A stretch of 64,000 bases of DNA from Patescibacteria group bacterium (GTDB lineage Bacteria > Patescibacteriota > Gracilibacteria > UBA4473), in assembly GCA_965660445.1 (NCBI GenBank), contig CBFIAK010000001.1, positions 32,001-96,000 on the forward strand. The letters are read 5' to 3'. The position numbers and the translations under genes are program-made. Positions 27,510 through 34,493 of the stretch are shown piece after piece. The notes under the pieces were generated by a model, which was given only the letters and a program-made list of their open reading frames with translations, did not search any database and was not told the DNA's origin. Position 1 is the stretch's first letter. Each line of letters opens with the position of its first letter.

Positions 27510-30212
27510 TTAAAGATTATTTTTTGCCTTAATTAGCGCGATATCTTTATTATTATTTCTTGTTTTCAAAGAATCTAGGATCTTTTGACCTGCCTCTGGA
27601 GTCCAATATATTTTTAGGTTTTCTCTAGCTCGTGTAATAGCTGTATAAAAAATATTATGAGTAATCAACTCTTCTGTTTCGGCCGTGATTACAATCTTAA
27701 CCGAATTATATTCCAACCCTTGTGCTTTATGGATTGAAACTGCATAAGCTACCTGAAAAGGAATTATTGTGTCCAAAGAGTCATCATCTTCATCAGTACT
27801 TTTATACTTGTTAACAACAAAACGAATCACAGAGGTGTCATCAGATTCACTATCAAGAAGTTCAAGATCATACCTAGACGCTTCAAATCCATTGATAACT
27901 TTTCCAATTTCAATATCAAATTGTATTTGATCTTCAGAGCTATTTATATCGATGATTCTACCTTTTAAGTTATTATAAATTAAAGGCGAAAATCGTTCTG
28001 CCTCGTTAAACAAAATAGGATCATTGACCTTATAGGTTTGGATTCCCCATCTCACTGTTTTGTTTTTGTTATTATTTTGTAAAAACCTATTAATATTATT
28101 TATTCCATAAAGCCCATCATAATTTAAACAAAGAATAATTTCATCGTTTTGTGTATAATCAAAAATTGACTCATCAAGCCTTGCTGAATATTGGTTTCTT
28201 GTTATATGCTCAACAATATCATCATCAATATTTCGAACTTTATCCCAAAGATCAAGTAAGTTTTTATTTGTTGTTCGGTAAGGCTTCGTTAGTTCAAAAA
28301 CTGAATGATCTCGTATAAATGGTCTAATTACACTAAACCAATTTCCGAATAGAATTGATTCAATTTGGAATATGTCACCAACTAAAACTATAGATAAAAA
28401 AGAAACTTTCTCTAATATTTTTTGCATATCAGTATTACTAACAGTACTGCATTCATCAATAAAGAGTAGATCGAACTCACTATCTTGATTACTTCGAGAC
28501 AAGAACTTGGATATAGTTTGAAATTTGCAATTAGAGGCTTGAACTTTTCTTCTCAAATTATCTACAGCAGGGTTTGTGTTTGCTAGATAAAGTTTTCGTT
28601 CATCATTAAAAAAATGTGATATGTGATTTATCAGAGTTGATTTGCCAGTTCCTGCCGCACCATAAATTAGAGCTACTTTGGAGCTTTCAAACATTTGTTC
28701 AATAAACGATTTTTTTTGATCGCAATCAATATCGTAATCAGAAAAATTCAACCAAGCACTAACCGATTTCGAATAGTCTTTAAAGCCTGTTAATGAAAGA
28801 TCCTTTAATTCATTAATAATATATAATACATCTTTTTCATACCCCCTCATATAAATATGATTCTTATAGCTATCAAGTTTTCGATTTCCGTGAGTAAAAT
28901 AAAGTGAATTATTATAAGTTTGAATAAGATCATCAACATTCTCAAAATGATCTAACTCTTCTTGTGGAGTGTATAAATATCCATTAACTTCTGTGTTATT
29001 TTTCACAAATCTTGCGAGTATTTCGTGCTCTCTACCAGTTGAATCAATGCAATCAAACAAATCTGAAATTTTAGGATTATGGTTTTTTAGAGACGTATTA
29101 AATGGCATTTCATCAAAAGGAATACAACCATATTCAAGTTTTAAATCTGATAACTTTATACAAGATGTTCCTGTATACTGCTTTTTTATAATCTGGTTAT
29201 TTAACCGATAGAGCAAATAAGCAATAATATTATGACCTGCTTTTTTATTTTTAATTAAACCTCGACATTCGTCTAAAATACTCAAAAAATGTATAGTTTT
29301 AACTCTTGTTTTTAATGCATCCTGAAAATCTTTATAATTATCATCAGGAAGATTCATAATTTCAGGAACACTAAGACCAGACCTCTTAAGAAGAGACATT
29401 AGTTCTCGTGATTCTGGAGAGTTTCCTCTCATTTTAAGTTCACTTCCAAATATTTTGGCAAAATTATTGAGCTCACATGGCCTAATTGAGATCTCCCAAT
29501 CATCAATAATTTGAATCGGCATCTGTTTATTCAAAACACTTATATAATCATTACTAATTGAAAGTTTAACGGCATAATTTTTGGAAACATCAAATCGTGT
29601 AAATGCAATAATTCTATCAAATTTACTTATGTTATTACTTGCTCGAGTAAAAGTTACCTCATAATAAACTTCATATTGAACAAAAAAGGGTTTTATCTTT
29701 TGAATATAGTATCTGTCACCTGTGGATGATTTAGATCTTCTTGATGCTGGCTGTTTAATTTTGTCAACGATCTTTTCATAATACTCACTAAGTGCTGGAT
29801 CTGTATTTATGGGGAAATCACGAATATTACTAAGAACATCAAGTCCATACTGTCTTTTGAGAAAAGATCTTATTTTCAATAGGTATTCATAGTACTTCAA
29901 AATTAATCTTTCAGAGTTTTCTTCATCAAGGGTGTAATGAGAAGCTGAGATTTTTAACAAGCTATGAAATTTTTTTAAGAACTTCAACTTTCCCATTCGG
30001 CCTACAAAAGCATTAGCTTCCTCAATATTTTCGTAATTAATTTTTATATCATCCCCATTACTGAAAATCTTCAATGAGATATGTTCAACAAAATTCCTAA
30101 GCTGGGAAAGCATATTTTGAGAGAGAATACCCCTTTCTGTAACGTCAAATTTATCAATATTAGCACAAAGAAGTTTATCGATATCTAAGATGGCTTTATC
30201 TATTTTTTGCAT
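27510..30212 (-). CDS. 900-aa RecD-like SF1B helicase with a large uncharacterised N-terminal region
   Basis: GAAGTGKST, FIDECST, VGDIFQI, SIHKAQGLEY and YTAITRARE motifs. Confidence 0.85.
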   Translation of the reverse strand: MQKIDKAILDIDKLLCANIDKFDVTERGILSQNMLSQLRNFVEHISLKIFSNGDDIKINYENIEEANAFVGRMGKLKFLKKFHSLLKISASHYTLDEENSERLILKYYEYLLKIRSFLKRQYGLDVLSNIRDFPINTDPALSEYYEKIVDKIKQPASRRSKSSTGDRYYIQKIKPFFVQYEVYYEVTFTRASNNISKFDRIIAFTRFDVSKNYAVKLSISNDYISVLNKQMPIQIIDDWEISIRPCELNNFAKIFGSELKMRGNSPESRELMSLLKRSGLSVPEIMNLPDDNYKDFQDALKTRVKTIHFLSILDECRGLIKNKKAGHNIIAYLLYRLNNQIIKKQYTGTSCIKLSDLKLEYGCIPFDEMPFNTSLKNHNPKISDLFDCIDSTGREHEILARFVKNNTEVNGYLYTPQEELDHFENVDDLIQTYNNSLYFTHGNRKLDSYKNHIYMRGYEKDVLYIINELKDLSLTGFKDYSKSVSAWLNFSDYDIDCDQKKSFIEQMFESSKVALIYGAAGTGKSTLINHISHFFNDERKLYLANTNPAVDNLRRKVQASNCKFQTISKFLSRSNQDSEFDLLFIDECSTVSNTDMQKILEKVSFLSIVLVGDIFQIESILFGNWFSVIRPFIRDHSVFELTKPYRTTNKNLLDLWDKVRNIDDDIVEHITRNQYSARLDESIFDYTQNDEIILCLNYDGLYGINNINRFLQNNNKNKTVRWGIQTYKVNDPILFNEAERFSPLIYNNLKGRIIDINSSEDQIQFDIEIGKVINGFEASRYDLELLDSESDDTSVIRFVVNKYKSTDEDDDSLDTIIPFQVAYAVSIHKAQGLEYNSVKIVITAETEELITHNIFYTAITRARENLKIYWTPEAGQKILDSLKTRNNNKDIALIKAKNNL

Positions 30213-30547
30213 TCAAAAATAATTGAAGAAAATAATACTCTTATACTACTTTTTTGAAAAATATTGAATAGGATTCTTTATCCAAAAAAGGCAAAAGGGT
30301 CAATAAACTGTAACATTATAGTCTTTAATTCCACTGCCCTTACTGATCTCTCCACCATAGTGACCAACCTTCCAACCCTTTCGACGACTCTAAGGGTTTA
30401 AACAGGTCTTAACAAGCAAAAATCATAATGTACCACTCCCTAGGAAGTAGATCACTATGACGTATTAGTGAATTGTATGGCGGGCAGGAACGGTCTCATG
30501 TCTTATCTGTCATTATCATTAGCCTTTTTTGTATATCTTTTTATCAA

Positions 30548-30587
30548 AATGAGACAAATGAGACACTATAAAAAAGGGGTGTCTCAA
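30548..30587. repeat. Left-end GAGACA/TGTCTC hairpin motif, copy 2
   Basis: AATGAGACAAATGAGACACTATAAAAAAGGGGTGTCTCAA. Confidence 0.85.
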
Positions 30588-30698
30588 TTTTCATAATGTT
30601 ACAAATGTTACACCGTAGAAGGGGCATTAAATAAGGAAAAAAATCCTAGACTTCAAAATCCATTGCGTCATCAATTGAATACAAATTTTATTCAACAA

Positions 30699-31937
30699 AT
30701 GAATAAGTTAGTACCAGAAGTGAAATACTGCATCTATGCGAGGAAGTCGAGTGAATCGGATGAGAAACAAGCCCTATCGATTGGATCACAGATAACCGAA
30801 ATGCAACGGCTGGCAGAAAAAGAAGGACTCAAGGTCGTTGAGAGCATCCAAGAGAGCAAATCTGCCAAAGACTCGGGGCAAAGAGCAGGATTTACACAGC
30901 TTCTCGCAGGGCTTGAGGAAGAGCGGTTCAATGCCATTCTCACATGGGCACCAGATCGGCTGAGTAGAAATGCGGGAGACCTTGGGAAACTGGTAGATCT
31001 AATGGATCAGAAGGTGCTTGTGAAGATTCAGACAAGCGGACAGGCATTCACAAACACTCCTGATGAAAAATTCCTGCTCATGATCCTGTGTTCTCAAGCC
31101 AAGTTAGAAAACGATAACAGGTCAAAGAATGTGAAACGAGGACAACGAACACGGTGCGAAATGGGAACTAGTCCTGGACCCGTGCCACTTGGATATAAAC
31201 TCATCCGAGGACAAAAATACGGAGAAGCGAGTAAGATTTTAATCGATACGGAACAAGCCCCATTCGTTAAAAAAGCATTCGAATATATCGCTTATGAGAA
31301 CTTAAGTGGACGACAGGTAAAAGAATATCTGGAAGATGAAGGATTCCGTAATAAACAAGGGAAAGTCATTGGATATAGTCGAATTTTCAAAATCATTAAA
31401 GAACCGTTTTACTACGGTGAGTTTGATTATGGAGGAATCCGATACAAAGGAACTCATAAACCGATAATCACAAAAGAACTCTTTGATGCTGTTCAAGACA
31501 AACTGCAAAAATATGCGGTTCGAGAAAAATGGGGACGAAAAGATTTTTACTTCAATCGGATTCTGAAATGTGCTGAGTGTGGATCAGGTGTCAGTGGAAC
31601 AGAACACACAAACAGACATGGAACCAAATACATCTACTACAAATGCAACAAATATGGCGGAACAAAAAAATGTAGTTGCAAATACATTCGAGAAGAAAAA
31701 CTTTTTGAAGAAGTGGCAAAAATCATTGTCGACGTAAAAGAAGAACATCTTCGAATGAATCGACGAATCAAAGAAGACTTAATAATGATAAATCGGCATC
31801 ACAGAGAAAAACCAATAACAATCCAAGAGCATTTAATCTCCATACTCAAGGATGGAACGAAAAAAGAGAAATCTGATATTTTGAGGAGTTTTAAAGAGAA
31901 ATTATTATTGAAAGATGGGAAAATAGTATTGTTTTAA
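30699..31937 (+). CDS. Large serine recombinase (resolvase, recombinase and Zn-ribbon domains)
   Basis: YARKS catalytic motif, DRLSRN, PLGY, FYYG, HKPII, CAECG and YYKC. Confidence 0.92.
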   Translation: MNKLVPEVKYCIYARKSSESDEKQALSIGSQITEMQRLAEKEGLKVVESIQESKSAKDSGQRAGFTQLLAGLEEERFNAILTWAPDRLSRNAGDLGKLVDLMDQKVLVKIQTSGQAFTNTPDEKFLLMILCSQAKLENDNRSKNVKRGQRTRCEMGTSPGPVPLGYKLIRGQKYGEASKILIDTEQAPFVKKAFEYIAYENLSGRQVKEYLEDEGFRNKQGKVIGYSRIFKIIKEPFYYGEFDYGGIRYKGTHKPIITKELFDAVQDKLQKYAVREKWGRKDFYFNRILKCAECGSGVSGTEHTNRHGTKYIYYKCNKYGGTKKCSCKYIREEKLFEEVAKIIVDVKEEHLRMNRRIKEDLIMINRHHREKPITIQEHLISILKDGTKKEKSDILRSFKEKLLLKDGKIVLF

Positions 31938-32023
31938 CGTCAGGAATATACGAAGTTTTGCGACTGAAAGGAGTAAAATTTGGGTGAAGCCTGCAAGGAT
32001 TTTCTCTTTAAGCCTTGTTATGT
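31932..32023 (-). repeat. attC-like site 2 (apparently chimeric)
   Basis: Minus strand reads CACATAAC...GTTAAAAC; same layout as site 1. Confidence 0.72.
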
Positions 32024-32091
32024 GGTTTTTCTGCAAGAAAAACTGCTGGAGAAAATCTTTGATTTTCGTAAGCACAGTATGACGGAGGACA

Positions 32092-32589
32092 CTATCTACT
32101 AGAATAAAAATCCTGTATTTCTTTCCAACTTCCATCAATCTTTTTTGCTAAAGAGTATCTTGAGATTCTATCTTTTCGACTAATTAATTCTTTTGAAGTT
32201 CTATCAAATTGTGAAGATGATTTTGAAATTGTTAAATGTGGATTATAATTATCTTCAAAATATTGTTTTGCGATTACATCAAATTCTGAATCAGCATAAT
32301 TTCTTACAACAGAAACAATTCCTTTATGCAATTGCAAAAGCTCATCAGAACGAGATAATTTTAACACTAAAGAATCTTTATCAAAATCATCGAAACCTAA
32401 AGTTTCAAATTCAAAAGGATTAAAACTAATTTGAGAAAAATCAGTAACCAATTTATTTTCATGTTTAGGTTTCATATAGAAAAAACAAAGTGTAGAATGT
32501 AAACCAGAACTTGGTAGAACTAAATTATTTTGTCTCGAAATTAAATTGGACAATTCTTCGTTTGGTCGAAAATAAGCAAGATACTTCAT
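32092..32589 (-). CDS. 2H phosphoesterase (LigT/2'-5' RNA ligase-like); ORF of cassette 2 (31938-32653)
   Basis: Two HxT motifs, LHSTL and PHLTI. Confidence 0.8.
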   Translation of the reverse strand: MKYLAYFRPNEELSNLISRQNNLVLPSSGLHSTLCFFYMKPKHENKLVTDFSQISFNPFEFETLGFDDFDKDSLVLKLSRSDELLQLHKGIVSVVRNYADSEFDVIAKQYFEDNYNPHLTISKSSSQFDRTSKELISRKDRISRYSLAKKIDGSWKEIQDFYSSR

Positions 32590-32647
32590 AAATTAAGGAA
32601 AGAAATACAGTAATATAAATATTTGGATAGTGTTCGAGTAATATTGC

Positions 32648-32729
32648 ACATAACATCAGGATTTAACAAAGTTCGCGGAGCGAATTTGGGAAATTCCTGC
32701 AAGGAATTTCTGTTAAATCCTTGTTAAAT
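32648..32729 (-). repeat. attC-like site 1
   Basis: Plus strand TAACA-TC-AGGATTTAACA...TGTTAAATCCT-TGTTA forms a stem with a 2-nt bulge; minus-strand cores CATTTAAC and GTTATGTG. Confidence 0.82.
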
Positions 32730-32790
32730 GAGGGTGAGCGAAGCGAAAGGCTGCAAGCCGTCCCCGACTGACTGCAAGGAAGGAGAGTTT

Positions 32791-33309
32791 CTACAAACAA
32801 ACGTCATCAGTCAAGAGAATTTGCTTTTTACCAAGAATATGTTTTAAACTATCAATTGCCGAATCATGATTATTTTTCCCATGTAAAGAATTACAAGCAT
32901 CTTCAATTACAAAAGTTTCAATATTATTATCAAATAAATCCATCGCAGTTTTGATAATACAAACATCCGTGTAAATCCCAGTAAGATAAATTTTTGTAAT
33001 TTTATTAGTTTTAATGAATTCTTTTAATTCATTATTTAATACAGTATAAGTATTATGCTGAATGTTTATATTGTCTGATGTTTGTAATTCGGAAAATAGT
33101 TTTTGATCTTCTTTATTTTGAAATTTAGTCCAACTTAATTGTTTTTCAAATAAAGATTTTCCATCATTAACAAATGTTGGAAAAACTATTTTTCCATTAA
33201 ATGATTCTTTCAATTTTAAAAGATTCGGCAATATATTCTCAGATTCTTGGTATCTAAAACCTTCTTGCATATCAATTATTAAAAGCAAATTCTCCATAAT
33301 ATAAAACAT
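32791..33309 (-). CDS. Isochorismatase/cysteine hydrolase family protein; ORF of cassette 1 (32654-33354)
   Basis: LLIIDMQEGF, GIYTDVCI and IEDAC motifs; start may be ATG 33297. Confidence 0.85.
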   Translation of the reverse strand: MFYIMENLLLIIDMQEGFRYQESENILPNLLKLKESFNGKIVFPTFVNDGKSLFEKQLSWTKFQNKEDQKLFSELQTSDNINIQHNTYTVLNNELKEFIKTNKITKIYLTGIYTDVCIIKTAMDLFDNNIETFVIEDACNSLHGKNNHDSAIDSLKHILGKKQILLTDDVCL

Positions 33310-33347
33310 AAATTACTTTGTATATAAAAGTTTGTTTGTAGAAATTT

Positions 33348-33370
33348 CATTTAACTCGTTTTTATCCAAC
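33348..33370 (-). other. attI-like recombination site
   Basis: Minus strand GTTGGAT-aaaaacga-G/TTAAATG; the GTTAAATG core exactly complements the CATTTAAC of site 1. Confidence 0.7.
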
Positions 33371-33382
33371 CTTTGTATTTCA

Positions 33383-33411
33383 AATATAGCAATTTCTTGT
33401 ATGTTATGCAA
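33383..33411 (-). promoter_or_regulatory. Pc-like promoter facing the cassettes
   Basis: TTGCAT-17 nt-TATATT with an extended -10 TG on the minus strand. Confidence 0.55.
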
Positions 33412-33431
33412 ACTTTTATTATTCTTTGGAT

Positions 33432-34244
33432 ATGGAAAATATTTTGGACAAAACCGAACGAGTTTGGAAATTGAGAAACTACTCCCCAAAAACTCGCAAA
33501 GCATATCTGTTCTACATAAGAGAGTATATCAGTTTTTCTAAAGGAAAAGGAATTAAAGATAAACAAAAAGCGATTGAAGATTTTTTGCTTGATAAATACA
33601 ATCGTAAACAATCTCCGCAAACAGTTAATCTGGCACTCAATGCGGTAAAATTTCTGTACGCGGAAGTTTTGAAAGATCCACAAAAGATTGACTTGAAGTT
33701 TGCGAAGAGAGACAAGAAATTACCCATTGTTTTGTCTCATGCAGAAATTAAAGAAATTATCCAGGCGACTGAAAATGCAAAATACAAACTCATGATTTCG
33801 CTTGGCTATGCTTGCGGTCTGCGTGTGAGTGAAGTTATAAATCTACGTGTTGCAGATTTGGATATTGATGAACTCGTCGTACATATCAAAGGAGCAAAGG
33901 GGAAAAAAGACAGAATCAGTGTTTTGCCAGAAAAATTACAAAATGATTTGCGAAATATCATTGCAGGCAAAAGTAATAATGATTTTATCTTTGCCTCTAA
34001 TCGAGGAGGAAAACTCACAACAACGTCTTTACAAAAAATGTTCCGCAAAAGTTTAGCCAATACGAACATAAGAAAACCCGCTACCTTTCACTCATTGCGT
34101 CATTCATTCGCCACGCATTTACTCGAAAATGGAACCGATGTGAGATATGTGCAAGAACTGCTTGGGCATTCCAACATCCGCACCACACAAGTGTATACGC
34201 AAGTAACAAATCCAAAGTTAAAGAACATAAAAAGCCCTTTATAA
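33432..34244 (+). CDS. IntI-like tyrosine recombinase lacking the IntI-specific insertion
   Basis: N-terminal LRNYSPKTRKAY, KKLPIVLS, GLRVSE, KGKKDR, HSLRHSFATHLL, LGH...TQVYT and a C-terminal SPL. Confidence 0.9.
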   Translation: MENILDKTERVWKLRNYSPKTRKAYLFYIREYISFSKGKGIKDKQKAIEDFLLDKYNRKQSPQTVNLALNAVKFLYAEVLKDPQKIDLKFAKRDKKLPIVLSHAEIKEIIQATENAKYKLMISLGYACGLRVSEVINLRVADLDIDELVVHIKGAKGKKDRISVLPEKLQNDLRNIIAGKSNNDFIFASNRGGKLTTTSLQKMFRKSLANTNIRKPATFHSLRHSFATHLLENGTDVRYVQELLGHSNIRTTQVYTQVTNPKLKNIKSPL

Positions 34245-34402
34245 ATATTTTTAAAACTGCCCTTATCGCACATACCTCATAGGAAGCAAAAACTCCTACC
34301 CATGCGACGACTTTGAAGGCTTTATCAACGCTAAATACCCCAAATGTCCCAATGCCCCATCCACCATAGTGGAAAGGAACCAGGTGCCATTAGTGCGTTG
34401 TC

Positions 34403-34493
34403 TGGCGGAGAGAGAGGGATTCGAACCCTCGGTTCCGGAAAACGGAACACACGCTTTCCAAGCGTGCGCATTCGACCACTCTGCCATCTCTCC
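34403..34493 (-). tRNA. tRNA-Ser(GGA)
   Basis: GGAGAGATGGCAGAGTGG...CTTGGAAAG...long variable arm...GGTTCGAATCC...CCGCCA. Confidence 0.96.

Follow-up and report, generated by a model that had tools for sequence, protein, structure and literature searches.

How does an integron-type integrase that lacks the IntI-specific domain settle which strand of its cassette sites is recombined? The question arises from a 64,000-nt stretch of contig CBFIAK010000001.1 (positions 32,001 to 96,000, forward strand; here called the window) from a Patescibacteria group bacterium, assembly GCA_965660445.1, in which the gene for an IntI-like tyrosine recombinase on the + strand is divergent from two small open reading frames (ORFs) on the - strand, each ORF being followed by a spacer. 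The two spacers have a 44-nt stretch in common, with 82% identity, and we conclude that they are the attC-type sites of a two-cassette integron. Both carry small hairpins on the + strand, with GNA triloops and tandem G.A pairs; on balance we favour the view that these hairpins are built-in structural parts of an attC family, which would stabilise the fold of the + strand and bias which strand is recombined.

The textbook example of a structure-specific reaction on single-stranded DNA is integron recombination, in which the choice of strand is ascribed mainly to extrahelical bases that are read by the IntI-specific domain. The same cassette logic is found here in many small-genome bacteria without extrahelical bases or a reading domain, with one-strand, DNA-only stabilising motifs in their place. 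If it is these motifs that set the strand, they offer a natural test bed for how far DNA folding alone can program site-specific recombination, as well as compact parts for the design of synthetic attC sites. Integron finders that are keyed to the IntI domain may miss such arrays.

Identification of the sites as integron attC sites

Relatives of the integrase were found at 80 loci (57-88% identity), nearly all of them in metagenome-assembled genomes (MAGs) named as Patescibacteria or candidate phyla radiation (CPR) lineages. A loose regular expression gave a first set of 17 sites, every one of them upstream of the integrase gene and on its strand, and a covariance model built from their alignment was used to search the window together with the 80 loci (781,614 nt, E<=1). 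An exact pattern around the second of the hairpins described below (TTGGG-N5-CCTGCAAGG) was too narrow, matching in 0 of 100 relatives, and was set aside for the covariance model. The model gave 98 matches, 96 on the + strand, which is that of the integrase, and two weak ones on the - strand; all lie upstream of the integrase, and they come from 45 of the 81 sources, with at most seven in any array. A site is present in 33 of the 36 loci that have at least 3 kb of upstream sequence. There are also 29 loci among the 80 with less than 600 nt upstream of the integrase, often up to a contig end, as would be seen if the arrays disrupted assembly. The sites are diverse, forming 78 clusters at 80% identity with a median pairwise identity of 0.57, and 48 of them fall into one cluster at 70%; they share ancestry, and site counts are accordingly not counts of independent events. 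In an even sample of the phylum a match at E<=1e-5 was found in 21 of 151 genomes (G000 included), while the genome to which the window belongs has only two sites by the model.

All 17 aligned sites have TAAC, GTTA, AAGTT and AATTTGG without variation, and the L boxes covary. Helix pairs, wobbles and bulges were counted in the 85 best sites, where the R-box pairs A-T, A-T and C-G are held in 83, 83 and 77 of 83. Across the R/L helix 94.8% of cells pair, compared with 30-50% when the partner is slid, and nine pairs change on both sides. The flanks were compared between neighbours: the 5 nt to the left of TAAC are a perfect complement of the 5 nt to the right of GTTA in the left neighbour in 22 of 49 cases (mean 3.82 of 5), against 3.8% of random pairs and 3 of 91 when a site's own flanks are matched with each other. 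Such complementarity between neighbouring flanks is the signature of integron crossover, with the crossover inside the R box. The rule is obeyed at both junctions in the window and also on the attI side, where an R' half-box, TCATTTAAC (33347..33355, +), is a perfect complement of the 3' R box of the nearer site and its flank (32723-31) and forms a 10-bp helix in the closed-cassette fold; we infer that the attI-side crossover lies between 33354 and 33355. Of 86 intervals (median length 727 nt), 83 have their longest ORF on the opposite strand, which upholds the earlier assignment of the motifs to the non-coding strand of the cassettes.

These features are those by which attC sites are known: AAC...GTT R boxes, L boxes that are kept in structure, crossover within the R box, and arrays of single-ORF cassettes in one orientation with a divergent integrase. 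The first-pass annotation, made from the sequence of the window, had taken the spacers for cassette recombination sites, and the R/L covariation, the crossover flanks and the position of the arrays upstream of the integrase all bear this out. The extrahelical base is the exception, since 83 of 85 sites have no extra base in the 3' L arm. They have instead a pyrimidine bulge of 2-4 nt (TTT, TT or TC) at the R'/L' junction on the 5' (AAC) arm, again in 83 of 85, and 84 of 85 have nothing in the 3' spacer. We conclude that these are real cassette sites and that they constitute a distinct attC family in Patescibacteria-type genomes. In the literature covered on integrons, attC sites and CPR/Patescibacteria, supplements excluded, we found no paper describing them, and the main texts of PMC9668308 and PMC9024848 mention neither Patescibacteria nor CPR.

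The partner integrase (272 aa; 33426..34244, +) has the Pfam domains Phage_integrase and SAM_4. Its top-scoring model is the integron-integrase model TIGR02249, which it matches in two stretches at 226 bits, under the cut-off of 265, with no match to model positions 179-236. The closest solved structure is that of VchIntIA (2a3v; E 4e-46), where the alignment has a gap over chain residues ~211-241; archaeal XerA structures align with the integrase from end to end (E ~6e-40). The additional domain of IntI, which is called defining and necessary in PMC9668308, is thus absent by both the TIGR02249 and the VchIntIA alignments, and the two gaps agree with the earlier observation that the IntI insertion is missing. 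The integrase protein is up to 88% identical across MAGs that are named as many different candidate lineages (loci L003-L082), a similarity that suggests horizontal spread.

Architecture of the sites and their one-strand motifs

The + strand is the complement of the cassette ORFs, that is, the integron 'bottom' strand. Its predicted fold consists of an R-box helix (TC-NNN-TAAC with GTTA-NNN-GA), the bulge, an L helix of ~11 bp, and a three-way tip made of two mini-hairpins. The tip runs in the order AAGTT, hairpin 1, AATTT, GGG junction, hairpin 2, and its junction strings, AAGTT and AATTTGGG, vary little or not at all among the 17 aligned sites.

In the window, site 2 (32646..32731, +; 70.1 bits with the covariance model) folds as DNA to -22.2 kcal/mol (z -6.7), as a two-box stem with a two-hairpin tip. 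Its parts are R' (TAACA, 32651-55), a TC bulge (32656-57), L' (32658-68), hairpin 1 with a GGA loop (32669-87), hairpin 2 with a GCA loop (32690-710), L'' (32711-21) and R'' (32722-31). Site 1, the terminal site (31930..32025, +), scores 65.3 bits and shares the 44-nt stretch with site 2; hairpin 1 carries CGACTGAAAGGAG (31961-73), and CTGCAAG is at 31991-97. Its fold reaches merely -6.1 kcal/mol and its L boxes do not pair with each other. Site 1 looks like a chimera of two different sites that have been joined in the conserved centre.

All seven of the one-strand motifs first reported for this locus are in place on the + strand. Direct reading gives the mini-hairpins GAAATTCCT-GCA-AGGAATTTC (32690-32710), GGCT-GCA-AGCC (32749-32759) and TTCGC-GGA-GCGAA (32672-32684). 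The string CTGCAAG is in itself ordinary, with seven copies in the window when both strands are counted (shuffle mean 4.88); five of the seven lie within 31991-32778, in the two spacers, and all five are on the + strand. In the 991-kb genome there are 35 copies on the + strand and 21 on the - strand, and the two spacers of the window are the sole clusters.

The same bias is seen across the homologous arrays. The 96 + strand sites have 62 apex triloops in their minimum free energy (MFE) folds; 39 are GNA (GTA 16, GCA 10, GAA 9, GGA 4) and none is TNC. The - strand is the mirror of this, with 36 TNC and no GNA. Together with the single orientation of 96 of the 98 model matches, this is the strand bias that the first-pass annotation had proposed to look for in homologues as the check on its reading. 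The GNA triloops are closed by C:G in 25 cases and by T:A in 14, and never by G:C or A:T; judged by the loop, the 25 closed by C:G are of the d(GCGNAGC) type (gcGTAgc, gcGAAgc, gcGGAgc). When perfect stems of at least 3 bp are counted, GNA exceeds TNC by 39 to 10 inside the sites and by 27 to 14 in the next 100 nt, compared with 288 to 314 in the rest of the upstream DNA and 484 to 495 in downstream DNA.

The tandem G.A motif, which had also been described as covarying, keeps both its covariation and its strand. In its strict form (N-GA-stem-loop-stem-GA-N) it occurs 20 times on the + and four times on the - strand of the sites, and 26 and six times in the adjoining 100 nt, with ~0.7 per kb on either strand elsewhere. 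A wider form, GNA-NN-GNA-NN-GRA (that is, G.A-NN-G.A-NN-GRA), is found 47 times on the + strand and once on the - strand in 20.5 kb. Its inner dinucleotides are complementary in 44 of the 47 (GC/GC 16, AC/GT 13, GT/AC 6, AT/AT 4), against a background of 26 of 101 on the + strand and 8 of 83 on the - strand. Wobble pairs are likewise asymmetric, with 187 helix cells occupied by G.T or T.G and 33 by A.C or C.A, and two G.T wobbles are near-fixed, one beside AAC (68 of 83) and one within AAGTT/AATTT (78 of 82). By standard DNA parameters, which model these motifs poorly, 81 of 95 sites have their more stable fold on the + strand, the mean advantage being a modest 2.24 kcal/mol; this is close to the mean of 2.12 kcal/mol by which the bottom strand is the more stable in 263 classical attC sites (PMC5027507).

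Hairpin 1 ranges in length from 7 nt to more than 100 nt. Some long inserts in it (such as L053:4925-5052, L061:680-826, L070:3590-3735) carry on the cassette-coding strand a string like TGATAAAATAATAAGGA, which reads as an extended -10-like element with a ribosome-site-like run after it and may be a promoter within the site; a strict pattern for it matches 3 of 96 sites, and more are visible by eye. A scan of the window for promoters and terminators gave a weak terminator-like match at hairpin 1 and a promoter-like site at 33412-33383, both on the - strand, neither of which explains the motifs.

Module B and the cassette-closing repeats

A second branched module, which we call module B, lies directly past the R'' box and holds the motifs at 32735-32785, outside the core site. 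Beside site 2 (32732..32765, +) it is formed by a GGG...CCCC outer helix around TGAGCGAAGCGAA (32735-47) and GGCTGCAAGCC (32749-59), and it is followed by a nested G.A hairpin with a GCA triloop (C-GA-CT-GA-CT-GCA-AG-GA-AG-GA-G; 32765..32785, +), in the zone to the right of the sites. At the corresponding position of site 1 there are two side hairpins (32025..32067, +), GTTTTTCT-GCA-AGAAAAAC at 32025-43 and another at 32051-67; the same hairpin also comes after the R'' box in loci L004 and L006. A core of the form G[CT]GCA[AG]CG or CTGCAAG stands within 90 nt to the right of 39 of 96 sites on the + strand and of none on the - strand, whereas the two strands of the downstream control have 30 and 32 in 423 kb. 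The cores include GTGCAACG (15) and GCGCAGCG (13), and of 21 rows read by eye, 19 have outer G/C runs that complement each other (CC/GG, GGG/CCC, GC/GC).

The cassettes also have inverted repeats of their own, between the DNA just to the right of a site (or of its module B) and the ~70 nt to the left of the next site. Such a repeat is exact over at least 11 nt in 30 of 47 cassettes, and over up to 31 nt; when 2000 mismatched pairs of cassettes were compared, 1.9% reached this. The median distance from the end of the right arm to the next site is 2.5 nt, and that from a site to the start of its left arm is 46.5 nt, positions which imply that in a closed cassette the arms prolong the R-box helix and leave module B as a side branch. 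In the window, the arms of cassette 1 (32787..32802 and 33330..33345, +) form a 16-bp helix, and for cassette 2 the right side (32597..32646, +) pairs with 32075-32126, beginning with a 14-nt exact repeat (32597-610/32113-126) and continuing in further helices of 11, 2 and 6 bp. The closed-form folds thus extend by 16 bp and by 14+11+2+6 bp, with energies for the + and - strands of -43.6 and -40.0 kcal/mol in the one case and -38.8 and -34.0 kcal/mol in the other. The closing repeats could hold the two ends of a cassette together. Where the repeat continues towards the site, the first pair that is not Watson-Crick is G.T on the + strand in 18 of 30 cassettes and A.C or C.A in three of 30, an excess that speaks against cassette mRNA as the folded species.

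In four metagenome runs that belong to other studies, short contig pieces of at least 90% similarity accumulate on 31985-32081 and 32664-32760, far more than on the cassette ORFs, and several joints among such pieces skip the cassette between the two pile-ups. The pieces and the sides of the joints are short (21-32 nt); they hint at reuse of the site modules in other organisms.

Proposed strand choice by DNA folding

How might such motifs act? They are of kinds known for unusual stability in DNA. GNA triloops closed by C:G or T:A, tandem G.A or GNA/GRA internal loops and the two G.T wobbles would be stable in the + strand only, for their counterparts on the other strand would be TNC loops and T.C and C.A mismatches. 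The motifs would then start the folding of one strand and hold it folded, possibly in the face of single-stranded DNA-binding protein (SSB) and nucleases. A bias in the strand that is folded could in turn give the integrase its choice of strand and the cassettes their fixed orientation, in a system that would do this without classical extrahelical bases and without an integrase domain to read them. That the hairpins select the recombined strand in place of the missing insertion was the interpretation first put forward, and judged from sequence it is plausible: the cassette sites, the non-coding strand, the absence of the insertion and the bias among homologues all stand, and there is published precedent for a purine tip on one strand. 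We also raise, tentatively and as something we would not yet expect to hold in full, the broader idea that Patescibacteria may have an integron class of their own, in which a Xer-like IntI without the domain that reads extrahelical bases would leave strand choice and end pairing purely to DNA-intrinsic motifs (GNA triloops, sheared G.A stacks, fixed G.T wobbles, the side module and the closing helix).

The precedent is found in mobile integrons, whose attC sites have a conserved 5'-GAA-3' tip on the bottom strand, and for which the unpaired tip and the spacer are proposed to act by stabilising that strand (PMC5027507). The principle of a stabilising tip is therefore not new with respect to that account; the scale and form it takes here are. 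Compared more broadly with integron attC sites, such as attCaadA7 of class 1 or the VCR sites of Vibrio, the sites described here are alike in being imperfect palindromes with AAC/GTT R boxes, covarying L boxes and crossover in the R box, in having one ORF per cassette and an array divergent from the integrase, and in the more stable bottom strand and the purine (GAA) tip. They differ in lacking the extrahelical bases of the L box and the bubble-like central spacer, whose place is taken by the bulge on the AAC arm, in the conserved three-way tip with its fixed AAGTT/AATTTGGG, in the additional branched module and stem extension, and in an integrase without the additional domain.

With the DNA mini-hairpin d(GCGNAGC) there is exact agreement in places, as GC-GNA-GC with GAA, GTA or GGA loops (GCGGAGC in the window, GCGAAGC in L004). 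The hairpins here are branches of a recombination site, however, and many are closed by T:A or have GNA/GRA 3x3 internal loops, which we take to be the 'zipper-like' GXA/GYA motifs. Mini-hairpins of this kind are described as nuclease-resistant and poorly bound by SSB in PMC13037366, a review. The first-pass annotation had also pointed to a similar sequence in the primosome assembly region of ColE1/pBR322; that review mentions neither pBR322, ColE1 nor the primosome. The integrase invites a further comparison, with Xer acting on folded single-stranded phage DNA of the CTX-phi type, since it too is a tyrosine recombinase without the IntI insertion and would act on a folded strand; PMC5027507 names XerC/XerD as the sole further tyrosine recombinases for which single-stranded substrates are known. 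Unlike those systems, the present one has cassette arrays with attC-like R and L boxes and no dif-like site, and VchIntIA is still the best solved match of the integrase.

Several points weigh against the hairpins as strand determinants. Both the account and the strand that this integrase would recombine are predicted from sequence and computed folds. The conserved bulge of 2-4 nt could by itself decide the strand, or could even point to the other strand: it is on the AAC arm, whereas classical extrahelical bases are on the arm opposite the AAC triplet in the bottom strand (PMC5027507), which makes the bulge a rival determinant. The invariant G.T pairs may, like the bulge, act as determinants in place of the hairpins. 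Strand composition alone can yield more GNA than TNC, as in the integrase ORF (114 GNA, 42 TNC), and the GC skew of the sites is +0.148; the bias in perfect stems, at 39 to 10, is not absolute, and the counts come from sites of common descent, not from independent events. The energy gap is small. Site 1, at -6.1 kcal/mol, barely folds, and its hairpins may be relics. Finally, CTGCAAG has a T:A closing pair, and the stability data that might be applied to it, in which GNA loops depend on the closing pair and C:G surpasses G:C by ~3 kcal/mol (PMC3201870), concern C:G versus G:C closure.

Could the hairpins simply display sequence to a protein? If the integrase or an accessory protein bound the loops and junctions by their sequence, the hairpins would serve to present them and DNA stability would be secondary. 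The near-invariance of AAGTT and AATTTGGG fits such a role, as do the recurrence of the module B cores and of strings comprising a loop and its closing pair over differing stems: CTGCAAG, GAGCCGA (8), GAGCTGA (4) and GAAGTGCAACGA (3). Yet the loops of hairpin 2 fall into several classes (CTGCAAG, GAGCCGA or GAGCTGA, GAAGTGCAACGA, CGGA and GTA), which makes CTGCAAG one variant and not the rule; with at least five unrelated classes there, and the wide range of lengths in hairpin 1, what the sites have in common is GNA or G.A and no single sequence. A structural role fits better, and we regard recognition of the loops by a protein as improbable, if the strongest of the alternatives.

We give rather little credence to the proposal, also made at first and by analogy, that the hairpins are single-strand initiation signals and would prime the complementary strand on excised single-stranded cassette circles. 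Similar mini-hairpins occur at the phage G4 origin and in RSF1010 ssiA, the latter a binding place of the primase RepB' (PMC13037366), and there as here one-strand hairpins with GNA mini-hairpins are involved, the motifs being confined to one strand. The likeness is one of resemblance only. The motifs here are within a recombination site: they form its tip and are already explained by folding for recombination, and the sequence holds no pointer to a primase or PriA site. No linked helicase or primase gene was noticed across the loci, of which no systematic survey was made.

About as doubtful, in our estimate, is a neutral origin, in which the motifs would be a by-product of the purine and G skew of the non-coding strand combined with common descent of the sites. 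The purine-rich coding strand of the integrase ORF and the GC skew of the sites show that composition can act in this direction, and the sites are related to one another (median identity 0.57, with 48 in the one cluster at 70%). Skew does not account for inner 2-bp stems that covary through four Watson-Crick types while the flanking G..A stays fixed, in 44 of 47 cases compared with the 26 of 101 and 8 of 83 of the background, nor for closing pairs that are C:G or T:A only, and the purine fraction of the sites is merely 0.53. Least probable of all is that the structures act in RNA, either in a + transcript antisense to the cassettes or in cassette mRNA, for although G.A tandems and G.U wobbles form in RNA as well and the closing repeats would pair in mRNA, the loops are 3-nt GNA, the optimum for DNA, and not GNRA or UNCG, the RNA forms are less stable (PMC13037366), cassette mRNA from the - strand would carry UNC loops and U.C and C.A mismatches, the continuation of the repeats favours G.T over A.C/C.A (18 against 3 of 30), and Rfam has no match.

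Genomic context of the integron

Cassette 1 encodes an isochorismatase-family hydrolase of 172 aa (32791..33309, -; PF00857, E 1.5e-28), and cassette 2 a member of the 2'-5' RNA ligase/cyclic phosphodiesterase superfamily of 165 aa (32092..32589, -; PF13563, E 2.7e-9). An Rfam scan of the window at gathering scores found two tRNAs only, and nothing at E<=1 within 31900-33450.

Downstream of the integrase in the window is a tRNA-Ser GGA gene (34403-34493). In 22 of 60 loci scanned, a tRNA or transfer-messenger RNA (tmRNA) gene on the opposite strand starts no more than ~430 nt past the integrase stop codon, the types being Ser, Ala, Leu, Val, Lys, Trp and tmRNA. Short collinear matches, which include the tRNA 3' end, relate 30333-30483 to 34256-34408. 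Both the tRNA-adjacent integrases and these matches fit an integrative element that carries the whole integron.

To the left of the array a large serine recombinase gene (30663-31937) is convergent with it, and its stop codon is overlapped by the R' box of site 1 (TTTTAAC, 31932-31938). Further left are a non-coding stretch of 450 nt (30213-30662) and a gene for a 900-aa RecD2/TraA-like helicase (27510-30212). The GC content is low, at ~0.29-0.30, in both the 28-30 kb and the 32-34 kb regions, as expected for acquired DNA.

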